Shown in pieces: positions 6,377 through 57,840 of a stretch of DNA of 64,000 bases. Every line of letters starts with the position of its first letter. Position 1 is the stretch's first letter. The notes below the pieces were generated by a model, which saw only the letters and a list, made by a program, of their open reading frames with translations, did not search any database and was not told where the DNA came from. A program made the translations under genes and the position numbers. This stretch comes from Minisyncoccota bacterium (lineage in GTDB: Bacteria; Patescibacteriota; Minisyncoccia; Phycocordibacterales; GWA1-40-21), in NCBI GenBank assembly GCA_041659365.1, contig JBAZYH010000001.1, positions 37,590-101,589 of the forward strand. Direction: 5' to 3'.

Positions 6377-7975
6377 TTACTTTTGTTTCTTATTTAATAC
6401 TCTCTTTAAGTATTTTCCTGTGAAGCTCTTCCCATTCATCGCAATATCTTCAGGAGTACCTTTTGCTATAATTTGTCCACCTTTATCTCCACCTTCTGGA
6501 CCAATATCTATAACATAATCAGCAGATTTTATGAGATCCATATTGTGTTCAATAACCATTACTGTATTTCCATTGTCTACAAGCTTTTGTAAAATCTCTA
6601 TAAGTTTTTTTACATCTTCATAATGAAGACCGATAGTTGGTTCGTCCAAGAAATAAATCGTCTTATACATTCCTGGTCTGTAAAGTTCTGAGGAAATTTT
6701 TACTCTTTGTGCCTCTCCACCCGAAAGGGTTGTTGCAGACTGTCCAAGCTTCAAATATCCAAGACCAACGTCATTTAGACATTTTATTCTATCGTAAACA
6801 TTGGGTATATCTAAAAAGAAATCCTGCGCCTCTTCTACAGTCATATCAAGTACTTGATGAACATTTTTTCCTTTATATTTTACTTCCAAAGTTTCTTTCA
6901 TAAATCTTTTTCCATTACAAATATCACAAGGTACATAAACCGTAGGAAGAAAATGCATTTCAACTTCTATGTTTCCATTACCTTCACAAGTTTCGCAACG
7001 CCCACCTTTTACGTTAAAAGAAAATCTATTTGCCTTCCATCCCCTTTCACGAGCCATCACAGTTGAAGCAAAAAGCTCACGAATAAATGTCCAACATCCA
7101 GTATATGTCGCCGGGTTTGAACGAGGAGTTCTACCTATTGGAGACTGATCTATCATTACAGTTCTGCTTATATATTCTGAACCAGTAAATGACGCGCAGT
7201 TATGAGTCTCCGTTGATCTCATTTTTCTCTCAAGTCTTGCCTGAAGATTTTTATATAATATTTCATATATAAAAGAAGATTTTCCAGAACCAGAAACTCC
7301 AGTGACACAAACAAGTTTACCTAGAGGAACATCAATATCCATATTTTTAATATTAAATATCTTTCCCCCTCTTATTTTTAATTTTCCTTTATCTTGATCC
7401 CTTCTTTTTTCTGGAATCTCTATTCTATCTTCTCCACGCAAATAACTAAGAGTAAGTGATCCACTTTCATTTTTCTTTGCTGTTAAAAGTTCGTCGAGAT
7501 ATCCAGTGACGACAACTTCTCCACCATGGACCCCAGCACCAGGACCAATATCTACGATAAAATCGGAAGCATACATGGTATCTTCGTCATGTTCCACAAC
7601 AATAATAGTATTACCTAAATCTCTAAGATCTGTAAGCGTTTTTATGAGTTTGTCATTATCTCTCTGGTGTAGTCCTATGGTTGGTTCATCGAGCACATAA
7701 AGCGCACCTACGAGCCCAGAGCCGAGCTGGGAGGCAAGACGGATCCTTTGAGCCTCTCCTCCAGAAAGTGTGTTTGCTCTTCTATTTAATGATAAATATT
7801 CTATACCAACATTGGTCATAAACAAAAGTCTAGAATCTATCTCTTTCAAAATAACATTCGATATTTCTTTTTCTGTTTCAGTAAGTTTTACTTCATTAAT
7901 AAAAGTTTTTGCATCTGTAATAGATTTTGCAACGTAGTCTACAATATTTAGACCATTTATAAGTATATGAAGTGC
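6377..7975 (-). CDS. uvrA: excinuclease ABC subunit A (UvrA), C-terminal segment, in frame with the upstream segment
   Basis: The same frame continues straight after the TAA: ALHILINGLNIVDYVAKSITDAKTFINEVKLTETEKEISNVILKEIDSRLLFMTNVGIEYLSL, then LSGGEAQRIRLASQLGSGLVG, the second ABC domain and LSGGEAQRVKI. The first Met of the track ORF is at 7849. Confidence 0.85.
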   Translation of the reverse strand, partial: ALHILINGLNIVDYVAKSITDAKTFINEVKLTETEKEISNVILKEIDSRLLFMTNVGIEYLSLNRRANTLSGGEAQRIRLASQLGSGLVGALYVLDEPTIGLHQRDNDKLIKTLTDLRDLGNTIIVVEHDEDTMYASDFIVDIGPGAGVHGGEVVVTGYLDELLTAKKNESGSLTLSYLRGEDRIEIPEKRRDQDKGKLKIRGGKIFNIKNMDIDVPLGKLVCVTGVSGSGKSSFIYEILYKNLQARLERKMRSTETHNCASFTGSEYISRTVMIDQSPIGRTPRSNPATYTGCWTFIRELFASTVMARERGWKANRFSFNVKGGRCETCEGNGNIEVEMHFLPTVYVPCDICNGKRFMKETLEVKYKGKNVHQVLDMTVEEAQDFFLDIPNVYDRIKCLNDVGLGYLKLGQSATTLSGGEAQRVKISSELYRPGMYKTIYFLDEPTIGLHYEDVKKLIEILQKLVDNGNTVMVIEHNMDLIKSADYVIDIGPEGGDKGGQIIAKGTPEDIAMNGKSFTGKYLKRVLNKKQK

Positions 7976-8986
7976 TTATTCTCTAAGTCTCGCACCCTTA
8001 CACTTTTCACAATCTTCATCAGAGAAAAAATCTTTTGTTCCAAGACCATTACACTCACTACATGCTCCATAGGGTGAGTTAAAAGAAAAAAGTCTAGGCT
8101 CTATCTCAGGATAAGAATATCCATCATAAGGGCACATGAATTTTACAGAAATCATTTTCTCTTCTTCAGGAGTTTCTATCTTAAGTAAACCTTTTGACTC
8201 ATCTATAGCTTTTTCTACAGCATCAGATAAACGCTCCTTAATAGCATCTTTTTTATCCTTAAACTCACTTATATAAAATTCATCGACAAGAACGTCTATG
8301 TCGTGTTTTTTATTTTTTGAAAGAATTATTTGATCCCTAAGCTTTTTAAGTTGACCATCTATTTTTACTGATTCATATCCTTTTTCAAGTAAATCATAAA
8401 GAAGCTGATAATATTCTCCTTTTCTTCCCACAACTACAGGTGAAAAAATTTTTATTTTATCACTTACAACTTCTACTCCAAGAATTTCCCTAGAATTCTT
8501 TGGTGCTTTAATTGCATAAACTGTATGAAAAATTGTTTCTAAGATTTCTTCCTTTGAAAGCTTCTTTATTTCTCTTCCACAAACCAAACAATGTGGTCTA
8601 CCAATTCTTGCAAAAAGAATTCTAAGATAATCATAAATTTCTGTAATAGTAGCTACTGTGGAACGAGGGTTATTTGAACGAGATTTTTGATCTATAGAAA
8701 TAGCTGGTGAAAGACCAATGATTTCATCCACATCCGGCTTCTGCATCTGATGTAAGAATTGTCTTGCATATGAAGAAAGTGACTCTATATATCTACGCTG
8801 GCCTTCCGCAAAAATAGTATCAAAAGCAAAAGATGACTTCCCTGAACCGGAAAGGCCTGTAACTGCTATCATCTTATTTCGAGGCATCTCAACTGTGATA
8901 TTCTTAAGATTATGAGTTCTAGCACCCCTTACAATAATCTTGTCAGAATTATGATTTACATCTGTTTTTGTTTTTTTTGTATTCAT
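7976..8986 (-). CDS. uvrA: excinuclease ABC subunit A (UvrA), N-terminal segment ending at an in-frame TAA
   Basis: UvrA N-terminus with Walker A ([25 protein letters not shown]) and zinc-finger region ([32 protein letters not shown]). Stop TAA at 7976-7978. Confidence 0.85.
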
Positions 8987-27546: not shown

Positions 27547-28188
27547 TTATCGAATACAACGAAATAAACCTATATCACCATCATTGTTATATGTTAAATT
27601 AGGAACAACAACACCATTACCATATTCAACAATATAAAACATTCCACCATCTTCTGTTTCTGTACTAGATAAATAAAAACCAGCTTCACTATTTCTTTTA
27701 AATTTTAAATCATTATTTCCAAAAACTTGATAAGTTAAAGTTTCAATAATTTCATCTTTTGTTGGAAGTCTTTTACCCTTAGAAAAACATTTATCTTTTG
27801 CGTAAGAATAAACACCCTTATCATCTTCATCATCCCATAAATTAAGACTATATTCTGAACATTTATCTGTTGTCTCTCCACAATTAATACCAAAATACAT
27901 TAACTGAGGATTAGGAGTAATTTCTGGTATATAAACCTTACTTTCGTCAGATAATGCTACTTCTAAATCATTTATGGTACCCCCAGGATAATATCCGTTA
28001 TCAGAATAAAACATATTTATAGCATTTTTAACTTGTGCAAGCTGTTGTATTCCAGCAGTTTCTTTTGCTTTTTCTTTTGCATTATTTAAAGAAACTATAA
28101 CAATAGTAGTTAAAAACCCAATGATTGATACAACAACCAGTATTTCTATAAGAGTAAAACCTTTTAAAAATTTATTCCTATTTTTCAT
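27547..28188 (-). CDS. type IV pilin-like protein (prepilin-type N-terminal cleavage/methylation domain)
   Basis: N-terminus KGFTLIEILVVVSIIGFLTTIVIVSL is the class III signal (G/FTLIE) plus hydrophobic helix; the C-terminal globular domain has several Cys. Confidence 0.7.
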   Translation of the reverse strand: MKNRNKFLKGFTLIEILVVVSIIGFLTTIVIVSLNNAKEKAKETAGIQQLAQVKNAINMFYSDNGYYPGGTINDLEVALSDESKVYIPEITPNPQLMYFGINCGETTDKCSEYSLNLWDDEDDKGVYSYAKDKCFSKGKRLPTKDEIIETLTYQVFGNNDLKFKRNSEAGFYLSSTETEDGGMFYIVEYGNGVVVPNLTYNNDGDIGLFRCIR

Positions 28189-49203: not shown

Positions 49204-49295
49204 TATATGAACTCGAATAAATATATAAACAAATCGGTCAGTTTTTTCTTTTTAGAAAAAACTGACCGATTTTTGTCTGTTTATATTTTATCCCC

Positions 49296-49663: not shown

Positions 49664-52600
49664 TTAATAATTAATCTTTCTACCACGACGAATGATAAAA
49701 ATTGTTACAAAGTATATTAAAGCAATAGAGACTATTAAGGTAAAAATATTCTGTACCTTAAACACCTTCCCCCACCCAAACTCCCCCTTCATCTCCACAT
49801 TCATAAATACACCTTTACTCTCCTCCACTTTGAATGATTCACTCTGGTAATCAGAGTATCCAAGGGCAGTAACTGTAAGGTAATAATCTCCAGGAGGAAC
49901 AAGGAATGAGTATCTTCCTGTCACATCGGTTGTTTGTGGATTCTTTTGTTTGAAATTATCTCCTGGCCAGAGTTCGTAGGTAGAAGTCTCTGGATTCTTC
50001 CAGTAGATAGAAGATACAGCATTAGCAATACGTATTTCTTTGTCACCACCAATCTTCTCATATATATATCCTTCAGGATCAACAAGTACAATCATACTTA
50101 GTTCTCTTTGTTCTTTCGTTTTATCTTCATAACTAATTATGGTCTTTAGTTCATATTGTCCAAGAGTATATGGAGAAGACACATCTGCAGTCCAGATACC
50201 ATTACCACTATCCTTGTAATCAAACTTAGCTACAACAAGTTCTCTTTCCTCTACAGCATCTAGTACTGAAGCATTTTGTTTTACATAACTTTCTTGAAAC
50301 ATTAGATATCCATCGATTCTTTTAGCTTTTGATTCTGGTTTGACTGCAAACTTGAGTAACTGTCCTTGTATAGTGTTTAATTTTTGTGTAGTAAATCCCT
50401 CATTTGATACAGATAGTTTTACATTTAAATCTATAGATTCATCGAATGTTCTTACAAAGATTAAGTTTGTAGGAACTTTATTACTTTGTGTTTGTGTGAA
50501 GTTTGAAATAGAAATATTGTTTGATAGACCAAAGTATTCTGCAAGACCTGGTAATAAAACTCCACCCATAGATAGGTCATTATTTAATGATGTTATAGTT
50601 GGGAACTTATTTATTATGTTCTTGAAAGCTACTGGTAAGTTGATGAGGTTCACCATTTCTGATGGAACTATTTCTCCTATATTATTATTTAAATTAGTTT
50701 GATCTTCTTCTGTAACAGATACTGGTGGAAGAGTAACTTCTGGTACTGGTATTATTGAAGTAATAATATCAATAATCTTTTCTATTGTAGGTGTGGTACT
50801 TAGGGTAACTGAGGTAGAAACAACTGATGAAGCTACGTTTGAAGCATCAAGTGATCTTGCATATACAGTATAGTCCCCATCAGGACAGGTTGTATCTGCT
50901 CCACAGAGATTGTATTCATATGTGGTTTGTACTGGAATGATTATCGCTTTATTGAAATCTGGATTATTAGATATTATTATCAGCTTGGTATCTGTATTGG
51001 GTGTGATATTAAGTGTGACTATTCTATCATCAGTCCTATTTGATGTTCGTATATCAAATAGGTTATCTGGTGTAGTTTGTGATGTTGTTGTAATAGGTTC
51101 TGATGTAGTTGTTCCACCGCTACTACCTCTTACTCTATATGTTATGTGAGTTGTACTACTTGTAGAGTCAGAATTATTGTAAGAATCATTACATGCAATG
51201 TATATGTCTTTAGTACCTGAAGTAAATGATGGTAGTGTACATGAGATTAATAAACTATTTGATGTACATGAGATGTCTGCTGACATATCATCATATGATT
51301 TGTTTGTAATGGCTAGTCTACAATCTCCATTTTCACTTATAGTGAAAGTTACAAGTTGACTTGCACGTGAGATATAGGAGTCGTCTGCAGGGGAAACACT
51401 TGATACTGTCGGTGCACTAGCATCCCATGTAAGTATATATTCATCATATGTAGAATTTCCTGCATTATCTGTGACTGTAAGTCTAATTGTATAAGTACCA
51501 TCTGTAGTTGCAGATATTGTTGTTGATGAAGCTGTAGTTGTACCGAATGTTATACCTATACCAGACCAAAGATATGAAGCTATACCTGAAGTAGTATCGC
51601 TTGATGTAGAAGTCTGAGTGAAGGTGGATGATCGAGTTTGATCTAATCCAACAGTAGTCGTTGGAACTGTGATATCAAGTATAAATGACCCCATAGAAGT
51701 AAAACTAGACGCAAGCGATCCATCATTATTTTGTGCACACCAATAATATGTACCATCCAAACCGATAGTAGATGATGGGGTGTAGGTAGTTGTGGCAGAA
51801 TCAGAAACAGTTTCTGTAGATGTACCAGAATTTACAATGTTTAAATTATTTAAACAATCATTTGCTGTAGTAGAAGATATACGATAGTTGGTAGTACCAG
51901 TATCTCCAGTATTTGGATCTGAATAATAAGCTGAGAGTGTCGGAGTGTTGTCGTTTGTATAAGAAGCGTTTGACGGAGATACTAATGTTGGTATGTTTGG
52001 AGCAGAGTTGAATGTCCAATTTGTATTATTACCACTATCTACAGAGTTCATTGGAGCTATTGCTTTCCCACTTGCAGTAGAATCTTTTATATTTAAATAG
52101 TTTGCTATGACAGTAGCTGGATTACTTACATTAATATTCCACTTGGTGCCAGAGATACTTGATATCAAACTAAGTAAATTATTTGCTATACCACTGAGTG
52201 TAAGAGAATTAGATATATTTGTAGTAGAGTTTGCCGCAAACGTAAGAGTACTGCTACTTGTAACTGATTTTACAAAATTATAGAAAGTATTTGAACCTGT
52301 TATGGATTGATTTTCTCCATTGAAAGTTATTGTAGAGCTACCTGTGTTGAAAGTGCCGGAGTTGGTGAGGTTTCCACTGAGGTTTATGTTGTGGTTGTTG
52401 GTTGTAAAAATAGAATTCGCACTGATTGTAAAATCACCCAAGAATGTTACTGGATTTTGTAGACTAATTGTTGAAATACTTAAATCAACTTCATTTCCAG
52501 AACCCAAATTATAAATATCATCTATTTCACTTTGCGTTAAGGCAACATTATAAATCCTAATATCATCCAAGCTTCTTTCCTGATTGTTTACTGAAGGTAG

Positions 52601-55600
52601 AGAACCTAATAAAAATGACAAACCCGTTGTATCTACTGAAGCAGAAGATGTCAAAGGTGATGTTGCCAAAACTCCATTAATATATGTTTTCCAAGAGCTA
52701 CCATCTCTCATAAATGTTAGATGCGTCCATTCTCCACCACTTATGGGCATAGAATATTGTCCTTCTCCAGCTGGAGTATTAAACGCAATTCTACCACTAT
52801 TACTCCAATATGAATAAATAACATAATTACTGAATCCAAACAAACCAGCATGAGAAGAACTATTTGACATTCTCGCCCAGAAAGATATTGTCCAATTATT
52901 AGTTCCACTAAAAGTATCTTTAATAACAGAGGCATCTATATTATTTTCTCCTGAAAATGCCAAGGCAGTATTTATTTTTCCTGAGGTTGTTAATATACTT
53001 GTATCTTGAGAAGCCGTCACATCAAAATTATTTGAGGTATTATCATCCACTGTTGTTCCACTCGTATCATTCATCCTATAATGAGCAACAAGTCCATTTG
53101 CGACTGAAGAAAAAATTGATACATCATTCAAATTAGAAACCCCCACATCCAAAGACGTAGTCGCCCCGTTAAGAGTCAACGTTCCACCATTTGCATTAAA
53201 ATTATCAGAGTTTGTAAAATTACCAGAGACAGTAAGATTACCAGAAGTAGAGTTAAATGTTCCAGAATTGATTAATAAATCTCCAGTTAAAGTAATACTG
53301 TTCGTTCCTCCATTAAATACTCCATTGTCTTGAGTAAAATCACCTGAAATAGAAAGTGTACCAGAGGTTGAATTAAATATTCCATCTGATATAGATAAGT
53401 TACCACTTAGAGTTATGGCTCCTGTTCCTCCATTGAAAGTTCCATTGCTTTGAGTGAAACCACTCGTACTAAGTGTATTTGATATTGTAAGAGTTCCTAC
53501 ATTTAGTATTACCCCACCAGTAAAGGTATTAGCTCCTGTAAGAGATAATTCTCCTGTACCAGCTTTTGTCATAGAGTATGCACCAGAGACTATTCCTCCG
53601 ACAGTAAGTTTAGCGGTGTTGTTTGTGGTAATGATACGATTTGCTGGTAAGGTAATATTTGCAGTACCCAGATTCAAATCATTAGTTCCACCAAAAGTAA
53701 TATCACCACTCCATGTCTGCGCATTATTTCCAGACAGTGTCACAGCACTAACTGAAGTATTATCTATTGTTCCACCTACTATAATAAGTGAACCTGCACC
53801 AATAGCACCAGCACTATTTATATTTAATGTACCAGCATTTAGAGTTGTAGATGTTATTGTGTTTGAGTTTATTAAAGTCAGTATTCCATCATTTTGAGTA
53901 ATGGAAGTTGCTGTAATAGTATATGATGATGTTTGAGTTATTGTGCCTGTATAACCTGTAGCAATAGTAAGAGTACCAGTAGTAACATTTGTATCTATAT
54001 CACAATTTGTTGTGTCGGCACTATCAAAAGTTACTGGTTGTCCTGCCTCAGGAACTCCAGCTCCACCTGCACCTCCAGAAGTTAATGACCAATTGTTTGT
54101 ATCATTCCAACTAGATGTTGAACCTACCCAATATTTAGATACTGAAGGAGTTGAAGGAATAGCCACTTCTCCTGCTATCCATGTTGGTCCACTTATTAAT
54201 GTTCCATTATTTGCACTATCTGAGAAATCAGAAACTGCTGTTCCTGTACCTTCATCAAAATGATAACCAGCAACTAAACCACTATTAAACGGAGCTACTG
54301 TTTTGTCTCCATAAACTCCAGTACCACTATTATATAGACCGAGTATTTCTGGAGCTGATAAAGTACGGTTCCAGATATTTATTTCGTCCAAACCACCATT
54401 CAAAAACCAAGATGAATCAGCACCCATGCCGAAATATTTAATATTGACGATATTTGTGATTGGTTTAGAGTCTTGGTATTGCGCACCGTCAATATAAAGT
54501 GTTGCGGTTCGTCCAACTCCTTCTGTATATGACTCTGTTAGAGTGACTAAATGCCAACCAGTCCAAGTAAGACCATCCATACCCATCCAATTAATTTGGA
54601 CGCCATCAGTATTTGAGCCAAAATAAAGATTATTATCAGAATACCAAAGACCAAAGTATGCCACATTTACACCTGTACCTCCAATCAAAGCATTGGATGC
54701 TGTAAAATCCTTTACCCATAGTGAATATGTCATATCAACACCACTGTCTGCTATTGGAGTTGTCAAATCGACATAACTACTTCCACCAAAACTCAAAGCA
54801 TAACTACCTTCAGTTGGATCAACTACGTAATCCACCTCCACCTCTCCGATAATCTTTAGATCAAAAACATCTGTCGGACTACCAAGCTCAGGTATAAGCT
54901 TTTTATAAAGTCCTTCATGATCAATATTAAATGTAGCGACAAGTTGATTAGTATCTGTAGTATAAGCTTCTATAGTTACAGGAGTAGAACTTGCAGGTTT
55001 GGCATAGATAGTAATATCATTTGCATTAGTAAGTATTTTTTCAAAGGTAACTCTGACATATTGTCCATCTGATAAAGGAGCGTAGTTACCATCTTGTGTT
55101 TTTACAGTGTCATAAATATCAGCAAGTATTTCTTTGTTTGCATCAAGTTGAAAAGCTTTTGAAATAAATATGATTTCAAAAGTCTGGACTGATAAGTGAG
55201 GTACTGTCCATTCTACATAGTCTAGCTTTCCATTGTTGTCGAGGTCATATGCTTTGAAGGTGACATTCTGATCTCCGTTGTTTGACCACTTTATTTTTAT
55301 TTTATCTTCTTGTCCTACTTTATATATTTCAGGAATGTTTGTAAAAGCCAGAACGTTTGTTATTGGTATTTCTCCTTCTACAGAAGAAACAGTAACTACC
55401 TTACCTGTGTCTGTTGTAGCTTCGGCTATTGTAGGGGCTGGAGTTTCATATTCAACAGTAACCAAGTCGGTTGATGTTGCAGTTGTAGAAGTAGAAGTTG
55501 TACTTGTTATAAATGTTGGAATTGATGTAGATGCTAATTCATCTAAAACTTTTATATCTTCATTTGACGAACCTCCACCACCTCCACCTGTTGTGATTTC

Positions 55601-56443
55601 TTCTTCTGCTTGTCCATTTTCTAGAGTGGATGTAGCTATATCTTCTGCTTGCCCGTTTTCTAGGGTTGTTGTAGAAACATCTGTCTCATCGGTAGTAGTT
55701 GCTACTTCGTCTGTGGTAGTACCTACGTCTGTAATTATTATCTCTTCTGTGGTAGTTGATACCAATTCTGTTGATGTGGAAACTTCTTCAATAGTAGATA
55801 CTACTTCGTCTGTTGTACTTGCTAATTCATCTACAACATCTTCAATAACTACATCATTTACAACATTTGTACTTTCTTCATTTATAACTTCTTCAATTAC
55901 AACAGGTGTTTCTTCTTCTGGTATGTCAACTACAGCAGAAACATCTACAGTAACCATTTCTGGTTCTGTAGAAGCTTCATCTACAGTAGCAAAAGAAGAA
56001 CCTACTTTTGAGAAGGCTCGACTTATTGAAGCAAAGAAACCTTTTGTATTTTGTTTCTTTACTAATTCAGCTAGAGCAAGTGATGCTTCTGATTTACTTC
56101 TTTCGTTTGATAATTTAGATAGTTTAATTCTGTCTTCGTTTGTGAGTTTAGAAGATGTTTGTATTTTGTTATTACTTACTGTAGATGTAGATATTTTTAT
56201 ATCATTAGCAATACTAGGAATCTCTACTAGATGTTGTAACCTATTTATATCGGAAACACTTACTGTTTTTATCCATCTAATTGGCTCACCTCCAAGTGAT
56301 GGGAGTTGCTTTATACTAAAGTTACTTACAATGGATTTGTTGCCTGTACTTGGAGCAAAGTAAAACAAAGCAAAAGCTATAATGAATGATCCGAGAATAG
56401 GAGAGATTGTTTTTATGCTTTTAAAAATGTTTTGTTTGTTCAT
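49664..56443 (-). CDS. giant cell-surface protein (2259 aa): N-terminal signal-anchor, Thr/Ser-rich low-complexity, two LamG/concanavalin-like lectin domains, beta-helix-like repeats, carboxypeptidase-regulatory-like beta-sandwich, C-terminal TM helix plus RRGRK tail
   Basis: LamG-like motifs LDEINIWNRTLSAPEI and SLDDIRIYNVALTQSEIDDIYN; repetitive TLT/GN segments (NTAKLTVGGIVSG...GTGELSLTGANTFTGGVILNVGTLTISN); CarbopepD_reg-like TGRYSFLVPPGDYYLTVTALGYSDYQSESFKV; C-terminus FTLIVSIALIYFVTIFIIRRGRKINY. Confidence 0.8.
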   Translation of the reverse strand: MNKQNIFKSIKTISPILGSFIIAFALFYFAPSTGNKSIVSNFSIKQLPSLGGEPIRWIKTVSVSDINRLQHLVEIPSIANDIKISTSTVSNNKIQTSSKLTNEDRIKLSKLSNERSKSEASLALAELVKKQNTKGFFASISRAFSKVGSSFATVDEASTEPEMVTVDVSAVVDIPEEETPVVIEEVINEESTNVVNDVVIEDVVDELASTTDEVVSTIEEVSTSTELVSTTTEEIIITDVGTTTDEVATTTDETDVSTTTLENGQAEDIATSTLENGQAEEEITTGGGGGGSSNEDIKVLDELASTSIPTFITSTTSTSTTATSTDLVTVEYETPAPTIAEATTDTGKVVTVSSVEGEIPITNVLAFTNIPEIYKVGQEDKIKIKWSNNGDQNVTFKAYDLDNNGKLDYVEWTVPHLSVQTFEIIFISKAFQLDANKEILADIYDTVKTQDGNYAPLSDGQYVRVTFEKILTNANDITIYAKPASSTPVTIEAYTTDTNQLVATFNIDHEGLYKKLIPELGSPTDVFDLKIIGEVEVDYVVDPTEGSYALSFGGSSYVDLTTPIADSGVDMTYSLWVKDFTASNALIGGTGVNVAYFGLWYSDNNLYFGSNTDGVQINWMGMDGLTWTGWHLVTLTESYTEGVGRTATLYIDGAQYQDSKPITNIVNIKYFGMGADSSWFLNGGLDEINIWNRTLSAPEILGLYNSGTGVYGDKTVAPFNSGLVAGYHFDEGTGTAVSDFSDSANNGTLISGPTWIAGEVAIPSTPSVSKYWVGSTSSWNDTNNWSLTSGGAGGAGVPEAGQPVTFDSADTTNCDIDTNVTTGTLTIATGYTGTITQTSSYTITATSITQNDGILTLINSNTITSTTLNAGTLNINSAGAIGAGSLIIVGGTIDNTSVSAVTLSGNNAQTWSGDITFGGTNDLNLGTANITLPANRIITTNNTAKLTVGGIVSGAYSMTKAGTGELSLTGANTFTGGVILNVGTLTISNTLSTSGFTQSNGTFNGGTGAITLSGNLSISDGIFNSTSGTLSISGDFTQDNGVFNGGTNSITLTGDLLINSGTFNSTSGNLTVSGNFTNSDNFNANGGTLTLNGATTSLDVGVSNLNDVSIFSSVANGLVAHYRMNDTSGTTVDDNTSNNFDVTASQDTSILTTSGKINTALAFSGENNIDASVIKDTFSGTNNWTISFWARMSNSSSHAGLFGFSNYVIYSYWSNSGRIAFNTPAGEGQYSMPISGGEWTHLTFMRDGSSWKTYINGVLATSPLTSSASVDTTGLSFLLGSLPSVNNQERSLDDIRIYNVALTQSEIDDIYNLGSGNEVDLSISTISLQNPVTFLGDFTISANSIFTTNNHNINLSGNLTNSGTFNTGSSTITFNGENQSITGSNTFYNFVKSVTSSSTLTFAANSTTNISNSLTLSGIANNLLSLISSISGTKWNINVSNPATVIANYLNIKDSTASGKAIAPMNSVDSGNNTNWTFNSAPNIPTLVSPSNASYTNDNTPTLSAYYSDPNTGDTGTTNYRISSTTANDCLNNLNIVNSGTSTETVSDSATTTYTPSSTIGLDGTYYWCAQNNDGSLASSFTSMGSFILDITVPTTTVGLDQTRSSTFTQTSTSSDTTSGIASYLWSGIGITFGTTTASSTTISATTDGTYTIRLTVTDNAGNSTYDEYILTWDASAPTVSSVSPADDSYISRASQLVTFTISENGDCRLAITNKSYDDMSADISCTSNSLLISCTLPSFTSGTKDIYIACNDSYNNSDSTSSTTHITYRVRGSSGGTTTSEPITTTSQTTPDNLFDIRTSNRTDDRIVTLNITPNTDTKLIIISNNPDFNKAIIIPVQTTYEYNLCGADTTCPDGDYTVYARSLDASNVASSVVSTSVTLSTTPTIEKIIDIITSIIPVPEVTLPPVSVTEEDQTNLNNNIGEIVPSEMVNLINLPVAFKNIINKFPTITSLNNDLSMGGVLLPGLAEYFGLSNNISISNFTQTQSNKVPTNLIFVRTFDESIDLNVKLSVSNEGFTTQKLNTIQGQLLKFAVKPESKAKRIDGYLMFQESYVKQNASVLDAVEERELVVAKFDYKDSGNGIWTADVSSPYTLGQYELKTIISYEDKTKEQRELSMIVLVDPEGYIYEKIGGDKEIRIANAVSSIYWKNPETSTYELWPGDNFKQKNPQTTDVTGRYSFLVPPGDYYLTVTALGYSDYQSESFKVEESKGVFMNVEMKGEFGWGKVFKVQNIFTLIVSIALIYFVTIFIIRRGRKINY

Positions 56444-57418: not shown

Positions 57419-57452
57419 TTCACACATATACGCCATGGCGTATATGTATGTT
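57419..57452. repeat. 34-bp palindrome (copy 2, one mismatch) overlapping the stop codon of the Cas2-like ORF
   Basis: ttcacacatatacgccatggcgtatatgtatgtt. Confidence 0.6.
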
Positions 57453-57840
57453 AATTAAAAATATTATTTTTTTCTGAATATTCTTTTGCTAATCTAAAAG
57501 TTTTTAAATTATCTTTCAATCCTATAGATTTAATATAATCAACAAAACTTTTTGGTAACGGAGAAGGTCCAACCCAAACACTCCTCTGAATCATTACATA
57601 ACCAAACTTTTTTAAATGTCTACGAAGCCAATCTCGTTCAGTCTTTTGATCGTGTGAGATATCATACATAACAATTAATTTTTTAGGTGATTCTTTTTTG
57701 AAATTTGATTGAAACGAAACATTGTATGTATCTCTTACTTTATTTTTTCTATTTTCTTTTTTTCTTTTATCAAAATCAGGACTACTTGTTGGAATACCAA
57801 AAGAATTAACCCACACCCCTTTATAGTTATGTTTACTCAT
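57451..57840 (-). CDS. Cas2-like ferredoxin-fold small protein with a 50-aa basic N-terminal extension; solitary, no other cas genes or array
   Basis: Residues about 54-100 (KKLIVMYDISHDQKTERDWLRRHLKKFGYVMIQRSVWVG) match the Cas2 beta-alpha-beta core (lvvYDis..krRrkvaklLkryG.rvQySVFec). C-terminal LKDNLKTFRL resembles the Cas2 DSVRIYRL strand. Bracketed by identical palindromes. Confidence 0.4.
   Translation of the reverse strand: MSKHNYKGVWVNSFGIPTSSPDFDKRKKENRKNKVRDTYNVSFQSNFKKESPKKLIVMYDISHDQKTERDWLRRHLKKFGYVMIQRSVWVGPSPLPKSFVDYIKSIGLKDNLKTFRLAKEYSEKNNIFN

Follow-up and report, generated by a model that had tools for sequence, protein, structure and literature searches.

A conserved, probable C-terminal anchor module and a linked gene for a putative small membrane protein accompany giant surface proteins in Patescibacteria

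Much of bacterial diversity is made up of Patescibacteria, and those in cultivation are attached to host cells. To our knowledge, the way in which their very large adhesins are displayed and retained is largely unknown. The question is posed by one gene in a stretch of 64,000 nucleotides from a Minisyncoccota bacterium (GenBank assembly GCA_041659365.1, contig JBAZYH010000001.1, positions 37,590 to 101,589 of the forward strand), referred to here as the window. This gene, predicted to encode a giant surface protein of 2259 residues (Table 1), is the longest open reading frame (ORF) of the window, as an original prediction made from the DNA letters alone had stated, and because a G+C content of ca. 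32% makes stop codons frequent, its 6.8-kb open frame is not a product of chance. The same prediction held that the C-terminal hydrophobic helix and the basic RRGRK tail behind it resemble a sortase- or exosortase-type sorting signal, and that they may define an unrecognised anchoring pathway. Is the tail a sorting signal, and by what other means could such a protein be held at the surface? The answer proposed here is that the tail is the end of a conserved anchor module of ca. 330 residues, common to otherwise dissimilar proteins, whose genes are in nearly all cases followed by a gene for a small putative membrane protein, here called the partner.

The tail is present as described. The hydrophobic helix reaches a hydropathy peak of 2.85 and is modelled by AlphaFold, and in the sequence IFTLIVSIALIYFVTIFII-RRGRK a transmembrane (TM) helix is followed by a basic cluster, as it is in sortase-type signals. 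The motifs said to be lacking are indeed so, as regular expressions located no LPXTG, PEP or PGF anywhere in the protein. LP.TG and the relaxed LP.T[GASN] were absent from all 2259 residues and from the family alignments, the final 90 residues contain no GG (the one nearest the C-terminus lies at 2132) and no NCBIfam sorting-signal model matched at E <= 0.1. Within the 64-kb window, Pfam identified no sortase domain in 49 scanned ORFs, secreted candidates included, and no other ORF carries such a tail. Conservation amounts to 2.4 bits for the pre-TM segment and 2.5 bits for the TM helix, compared with 2.3–3.2 bits for the folded domains, which supports a tail that is probably under specific constraint. 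Most family members end in '...NIELKTKYWWLKIVDWKTILL..VIILLLYNFYRDKIRE', with the signature 'DWKT..LLLYNFYRDK'. The window clade ends in '...NIE[LM]K.KFSW....N[IL]QNILL(9)LIY(5)FTIRRGKK', of which the RRGRK of the window is a variant, and the signature 'QNILL...LIY...FTIRRGKK' is seen again in the closest relatives. In a third group the C-terminal ending is not fixed. When 1.5 Mb of related loci were scanned with the strict tail motifs YNF[YWF][RKN]D and [TI]IRR[GSR][KR], 55 of 59 matches fell behind the module, one of the four exceptions being a frameshifted module gene. Furthermore, the 80 listed loci correspond to 72 assemblies, eight of which hold two copies, these copy numbers being minimum values. 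Judged from such patterns, the tail does not appear to behave like a portable sorting signal. With no motif, a tail bound to its module and one or two copies per assembly among the loci listed, the claim of a sortase- or exosortase-type signal found no support. What is left of the suggested unrecognised anchoring pathway takes another form, that of a dedicated anchor module with a cognate small partner.

It is the module as a whole that recurs. When the last 340 residues were used as the query, relatives aligned across the full module and not across the tail alone. When one genome per species was scanned, at least 198 relatives came to light, of which 80 loci were fetched and listed; the loci were gathered by pattern-based scans and the counts are therefore lower bounds. 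The taxonomically labelled relatives among the 80 belong to the Patescibacteria or Candidate Phyla Radiation, for example Nomurabacteria, Staskawiczbacteria, Vogelbacteria and Paceibacterota. The module starts with a linker bearing LP..KFP..LPGL motifs and continues through two beta-sandwiches and an aromatic juxtamembrane segment to the TM helix and its basic stub, and the module of the window shares 36–53% identity with all 73 other sequences of a 74-sequence alignment (A3). From a 13-sequence alignment AlphaFold modelled the two beta-sandwiches and a helix at residues 2223–2255 with a mean predicted local distance difference test score (pLDDT) of 65, the first 100 residues of the module being poorly defined. 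Foldseek placed the model closest to tandem Ig-like adhesins and pilins (8wxd, 2yn3) at E values of ~1e-4 to 1e-5, a likeness regarded as generic because the template modelling score (TM-score) is only ~0.2. No NCBIfam family covers the module, and searches of PDB sequences returned no relative, only matches at chance level. The carboxypeptidase-regulatory-like sandwich of the original prediction is supported indirectly: the region is modelled as a beta-sandwich and most homologues carry a precomputed CarboxypepD_reg (PF13620) annotation, but the window protein itself has no match to this Pfam family at E <= 0.1 and relatives score 23–26 bits against a cut-off of 32.3.

In front of the module the proteins differ widely. 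Reconstructed members range from 458 to 3785 residues and all end in the module, their distal domains being as unlike as ten copies of DUF285, Calx-beta with DUF2341, LamG with Big_3, or an unannotated repeat. Most members are a short form of 600–850 residues, with a conserved signal peptide and a repeat region of the 'YAWSENIGWINFG' type for which Pfam and NCBIfam gave no match. The short-form signal peptide ends in FA, directly before STTDGTID, at many loci (among them L053 9080–11158 and L080 1070–2908). By BLAST, window residues 1900–2259 are common to 75–80 of the 80 relatives, residues 1600–1900 to ca. 10–30 of them and residues 550–1300 to only one or two. The closest available relative, whose partner protein is 77% identical, has a large protein with 63% identity over the stretch from residue 1554 through the C-terminus and no alignable sequence before ca. 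residue 1550, where the similarity ends abruptly. This pattern of sharing, together with the break near residue 1550, marks the C-terminal part as constant and the centre as exchangeable. Neither the module gene nor the partner gene had relatives in viral contigs, and a phage origin was rejected for that reason. A few family members (L035 2401–7131, L048 1–1149 and L010 2–1588) lack a complete TM helix at their end, which reads '...HWWTNLISWFANLI' in one instance, and may be truncated or frameshifted genes or encode secreted variants; L035 and L010 are also without a downstream partner gene.

The partner emerged from an all-against-all clustering of neighbouring ORFs around the module genes of 81 loci. 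A single cluster stood out, an ORF of ca. 120 codons located directly downstream and on the same strand in 69 of the 81 loci, the window among them. A re-check with a hidden Markov model added five partners and four loci have no room downstream, giving a total of 74 out of 77 loci with room. For the reverse scan, metagenomes were searched with the partner motif F[ED][DT]RL[KQ]LEN and a 28-sequence alignment, yielding 341 loci of which 80 were fetched, and the count was limited to the 78 partner genes with at least 200 nucleotides (nt) upstream. Of these, 74 have a module ORF in front of them, whose end lies at a distance of −31 to +163 nt, the remainder being one gene behind a frameshifted module gene and three orphans. 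The window partner gene lies 14 nt downstream of the stop codon of the giant gene on the same strand, and elsewhere the gap is mostly −4 to +100 nt. Among the 81 loci no enzyme gene was consistently linked to this two-gene cassette. The candidates rpsL/rpsG/fusA, M50 peptidase, TPR proteins, Lcl_C and PaaX_M were dismissed as cassette parts, each occurring in no more than 13 of the 81 loci. Variants of the arrangement exist. At L153 (3364–6463), and similarly at L029, the cassette is followed by a 728-residue multi-TM and TPR protein, a 173-residue TM protein and a second copy of the partner, which in L153 is divergent and has no module gene before it. At L092 (3266–5113) a second giant gene begins directly after the first cassette, so that tandem cassettes are possible, and the N-terminal part of its product shares 48% identity with window residues 38–558.

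Module and partner have also diverged in step. Their pairwise identities correlate with r = 0.78, against a permutation maximum of 0.32 (n = 1000). Where a genome holds a pair of cassettes, the nearest relatives of a module are found in the same place as those of its own partner (L032 with L028, L041 with L073, L026 with L014, L065 with L043), and because paralogous cassettes keep such matched relatives, the pair duplicates and diverges as a unit.

The partner belongs to a family of short proteins. That of the window is 92% identical to P0011, and among 1.84 billion representative proteins a profile search gave 430 partner clusters at 50% identity (E <= 1e-3), the best 150 of the 430 matches all being short, at 85–163 residues. 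From 119 sequences AlphaFold modelled, at a pLDDT of 90, a long helix (residues 3–58) which packs with three short helices into a four-helix bundle. The hydrophobic stretch at the N-terminal end of the long helix is read as a TM segment, and the model would accordingly have its N-terminus inside the cell and its bundle outside the cytoplasm. R69, E73 and W88, the residues conserved best, occur in 119 of 119 sequences and all lie in this predicted ectodomain; F49, F53, R77, D81, F91 and Q101 are nearly invariant. The TM segment is less conserved, with N19 in 60 of 119. With only ca. 5 cytoplasmic residues in this topology, the partner could not signal inward. Its fold recalls the periplasmic sensor domains of TorS, QseE and NarQ and the 4HB chemoreceptor domains, from which it differs in having neither a second TM helix nor a cytoplasmic output domain; no sequence similarity was found, and the likeness is that of a very common fold. 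Pfam, NCBIfam and PDB sequence searches gave nothing consistent for the partner and no enzyme match. Scattered weak Pfam matches among the 119 sequences (Ge1_WD40 in 11, Imm58 and DUF7809 in seven each) were set aside as noise, the name 'NqrC' on one homologue was rejected as a mis-annotation, and PDB sequence matches of module or partner, including ubiquitin at E = 0.013, were at chance level. In the window, a hairpin with a 19-bp stem lies between the partner gene and a convergent major facilitator superfamily (MFS) transporter gene.

What the module carries in the window protein can be described in part. Two LamG/ConA-like modules had been predicted and are supported by Laminin_G_3 (PF13385), which matched two stretches at E = 7e-28 and 98.1 bits, above a gathering threshold of 27.6. 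The Thr/Ser/Glu-rich stalk and its Gly6 run are likewise in place. The pectate-lyase or autotransporter-like repeats that were proposed came down to one PATR repeat that is only just at threshold (27.0 bits against 27 in Pfam; TIGR02601 at 27.4 against 19.85). A type V autotransporter was rejected, as Pfam found no beta-barrel translocator domain and the C-terminus is a single TM helix instead. At the N-terminus, the signal-anchor originally proposed is upheld as far as a hydrophobic segment at residues 13–31 goes, but it may also be a cleaved signal; residues 1–35, a putative Sec signal or signal anchor, are conserved in L002, L005, L008 and L009. Residues ca. 330–545 share 60–64% identity with L005 and L008, above the ca. 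42% of the C-terminal module, and for residues 346–545 Pfam gave faint matches only. This N-terminal domain also contains an EF-hand-like loop, DLDNNGKLDYVEW. The suggested role in adhesion or host attachment may be accepted as reasonable for a large, apparently exported multi-domain protein with lectin-like domains.

The reading that we prefer, at a probability of roughly 0.6, is that of a giant adhesin or fibril with a stop-transfer helix as its anchor, heads that can be exchanged, and a membrane protein as its cognate partner. The N-terminal hydrophobic signal would export the giant protein via Sec, and the C-terminal helix would act as a stop-transfer sequence that retains it in the cytoplasmic membrane, the RRGRK stub being cytoplasmic according to the positive-inside rule; this topology, like that of the partner, is one that we infer. 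The module would serve as the constant base, while distal parts would be freely swapped among family members, and in the window the two LamG domains, the beta-helix-like repeat region and PKD/Ig-like domains would be displayed outward. The 117-residue partner, presumably co-transcribed, would bind the membrane-proximal base via its ectodomain and thereby stabilise, organise or retain the anchor. Going further, it is tentatively suggested that the cassette may be a hitherto undescribed surface-display system specific to Patescibacteria, in which two constant proteins form a socket in the membrane and interchangeable adhesin heads are grafted onto it, although we would put this wider proposal at below even odds. 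In the window clade both ends are constant (residues 1–545 and 1550–2259), variation being confined to the centre. Should the N-terminal segment stay uncleaved, one may speculate that the protein forms a hairpin anchored at both ends, with the LamG/beta-helix-like/LamG centre as its host-binding tip; a possible cleavage site between PSTG and N at the N-terminus bears on this double anchor.

Several observations weigh against the stop-transfer-anchored adhesin with its cognate partner. About 4% of loci miss one of the two genes (L009, L010, L035, L106, L138 and, for its second copy, L153). Tight linkage would by itself lead one to expect co-divergence, and physical contact between module and partner is something that we infer. 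The negative result for sortases covers 64 kb of the genome, and a sortase may be encoded elsewhere; the absence of C-terminal processing is likewise deduced from sequence, a proteolytic or covalent processing of the tail being conceivable. In addition, the model of the module is of moderate confidence, in line with its pLDDT and its 13 sequences, and an adhesin function is suggested by domain types only.

Of the other explanations, a true sorting signal has been considered above from the side of the tail. It would require cleavage by a sortase-, exosortase- or rhombosortase-like enzyme and attachment to wall or lipid, and the tripartite look of the tail (conserved pre-TM segment, TM helix, basic cluster) speaks for it, as does the conservation of 'DWKT..LLLYNFYRDK' in most members and of 'QNILL..LIY..FTIRRGKK' in the window clade. 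We nevertheless consider it improbable, given that an LPXTG, PEP, PGF or GlyGly-type motif and an NCBIfam match are missing, that the signature varies by clade and is lacking in the third group, and that 55 of 59 strict tail motifs sit behind the module, at one or two copies per assembly among the 80 listed loci. Nor does an enzyme offer itself, with no sortase in the window, no consistently linked enzyme gene and a partner that is a four-helix bundle without a match to an enzyme or other known family. Somewhat more probable, though well short of likely, is an envelope or S-layer-like structural component, held by its C-terminal helix in the manner of archaeal S-layer proteins, in which adhesion is not the main role and the short form of 600–850 residues is an ancestral lattice or stalk subunit from which the giant variants derive. 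Short forms, with their conserved signal peptide and repeat domain, are in the majority, the copy number is low among the listed loci, and sites near rpsL-rpsG-fusA or rpoBC suggest an old, vertically inherited envelope gene. This reading is still doubtful for the window protein, which has LamG lectin-type domains and the hypervariable centre typical of adhesins, and neither Pfam nor NCBIfam detected a lattice-forming or SLH-type domain.

The partner, for its part, could be an independent small membrane protein, either a transient chaperone or assembly factor or a protein with an unrelated task that is kept in place by linkage. Orphan copies that no module gene precedes (those of L106 and L138 and the second one of L153) and the generic four-helix-bundle fold would fit such a protein, yet linkage of ca. 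96% in both directions across deeply diverged lineages, co-divergence that extends to the paralogous cassettes of one genome, and short intergenic gaps, as in the window and at most other loci, make it hard to credit.

Systems that display large surface proteins resemble this cassette in some respects only. LPXTG sortase substrates (TIGR01167) are likewise large modular proteins that have an export signal at the N-terminus and a hydrophobic helix plus basic cluster at the C-terminus, and their hosts are Gram-positive, the present bacterium being probably monoderm. Their signal is, however, a portable element of ca. 35 residues, whereas here the tail is fused to a 330-residue module, has no LPXTG-like pentapeptide and no sortase nearby, the gene of a small helical partner standing in the place of an enzyme gene. 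PEP-CTERM, PGF-CTERM and GlyGly-CTERM proteins have superficially the same layout of signature, TM helix and basic residues, but neither their signatures nor their models were matched here and no enzyme is linked. In exosortase, archaeosortase and rhombosortase systems, many proteins of a genome bear the signal, and a polytopic processing enzyme is found alongside them. Against their many substrates stand one or two module copies among the loci listed here. In Archaea, the S-layer stalk protein SlaB of Sulfolobus has a C-terminal TM anchor and the slaA gene is adjacent. SlaB/slaA and the present cassette have in common that beta-sandwiches adjoin one C-terminal TM anchor and that two genes together serve one surface structure; no sequence relationship was found, and here the second gene encodes a 117-residue bitopic helical protein and not a canopy subunit, in bacteria. 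SiiE, Gram-positive shaft pilins and RTX/BAP-type adhesins share the tandem beta-sandwiches (by fold search) and the modular, variable distal domains, but are held by type I secretion system (T1SS) plugs, sortases or the outer membrane, in contrast to the C-terminal TM helix and partner proposed here.

The giant lectin-bearing protein itself is of a type already reported, that of the large surface proteins of Patescibacteria. In the passages found by keyword search, large ConA/FN3-bearing surface proteins are described with a proposed role in host contact (PMC13059738), and adhesins are described as essential for the epibiotic growth of Saccharibacteria (PMC10633639). As far as those passages go, the proteins come from the same lineage and are very large, with TM segments or signal peptides and adhesion domains; the C-terminal module and the partner gene are absent from the same passages. 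Module and linked partner are also absent from Pfam and NCBIfam, and the literature search, in the portions of text that it returned, gave no description of them.

The window is bacterial chromosomal DNA, with genes for rpoB, rpoC, dnaG, a sigma-70 factor, YchF, UvrB/C, TGT and ClpB and one tRNA-Ala. Its cassette lies ca. 7.5 kb from rpoBC, and ten loci place the cassette just upstream of rpsL-rpsG-fusA. A small gene of the PaaX_M/Cas2-like family (57451..57840, minus strand) is found ca. 1 kb upstream of the giant gene, and this family occurs near the cassette in five loci, for example L030 (5668–6249). The product of 27547..28188 (minus strand) resembles type IV pilins, has an N_methyl motif and is a second candidate component of a surface appendage. 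Elsewhere in the window uvrA appears to be divided into two ORFs 126 nt apart (6377..7849 and 7976..8986, both on the minus strand), the upstream one with UvrA_inter and the downstream one with the ABC ATPase part, which could reflect a frameshift or a pseudogene, or else a gene that is split in an unusual way. The features of the cassette are collected in Table 1.

Table 1. Features of the giant gene, its product and the partner gene, with positions in the window.
Feature	Position	Strand	Basis and remarks
Giant surface protein, putatively membrane-anchored	49664..56443	minus	Single ATG-to-stop ORF, 2259 residues plus stop
N-terminus, residues 1–35	56339..56443	minus	Basic K3, K8, K11, hydrophobic segment, 'PSTG'; hydropathy
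Low-complexity spacer, residues 160–345	55409..55966	minus	Acidic, Thr/Ser/Glu/Val-rich; TTDE repeats; Gly6 at 286
N-terminal constant domain, unannotated, residues ~330/346–545	54809..55408 (to 55456 from ~330)	minus	Sequence identity to relatives
LamG/ConA-like domain 1, residues ~550–715	54299..54796	minus	Laminin_G_3 match; motif LDEINIWN at 685; boundaries approximate
Gly/Thr/Asn-rich repeat region, beta-helix-like, residues ~770–1110	53114..54136	minus	PATR/autotransporter repeat at 959–987
LamG/ConA-like domain 2, residues 1176–1307	52523..52918	minus	Best Laminin_G_3 stretch; motif LDDIRIYN at 1292
K319L-like PKD/Ig-like domain, residues 1592–1668	51440..51670	minus	Pfam; inside clade-level constant stalk from ~residue 1550
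Conserved C-terminal anchor module, residues 1915–2259	49667..50701	minus	Common to all 80 genome relatives
Module beta-sandwich 1, residues ~2018–2121	50081..50392	minus	AlphaFold model; generic Ig/FN3/pilin fold matches
Module beta-sandwich 2, residues ~2122–2219	49787..50080	minus	CarboxypepD_reg-like; VDPEGY, YSFLVPPGxY and NxE motifs present; AlphaFold
Juxtamembrane EFGWGKVFKVQN, TM helix IFTLIVSIALIYFVTIFII, RRGRK, then INY; residues 2220–2259	49667..49786	minus	Hydropathy, AlphaFold, conservation
Partner gene, 117 residues	49296..49649	minus	Predicted TM helix and four-helix bundle; R69, E73, W88 invariant
Bidirectional terminator-like hairpin	49231..49272		Perfect 19-bp stem; closes the two-gene unit

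For the annotation of these genomes, the analysis removes a tempting label, that of a novel sortase-type signal. In its place, the pairing of module and partner offers a concrete two-protein interaction to examine. Furthermore, the partner gene provides a handle by which metagenomes may be searched, in the sequence upstream of it, for variable and probably host-specific adhesins.

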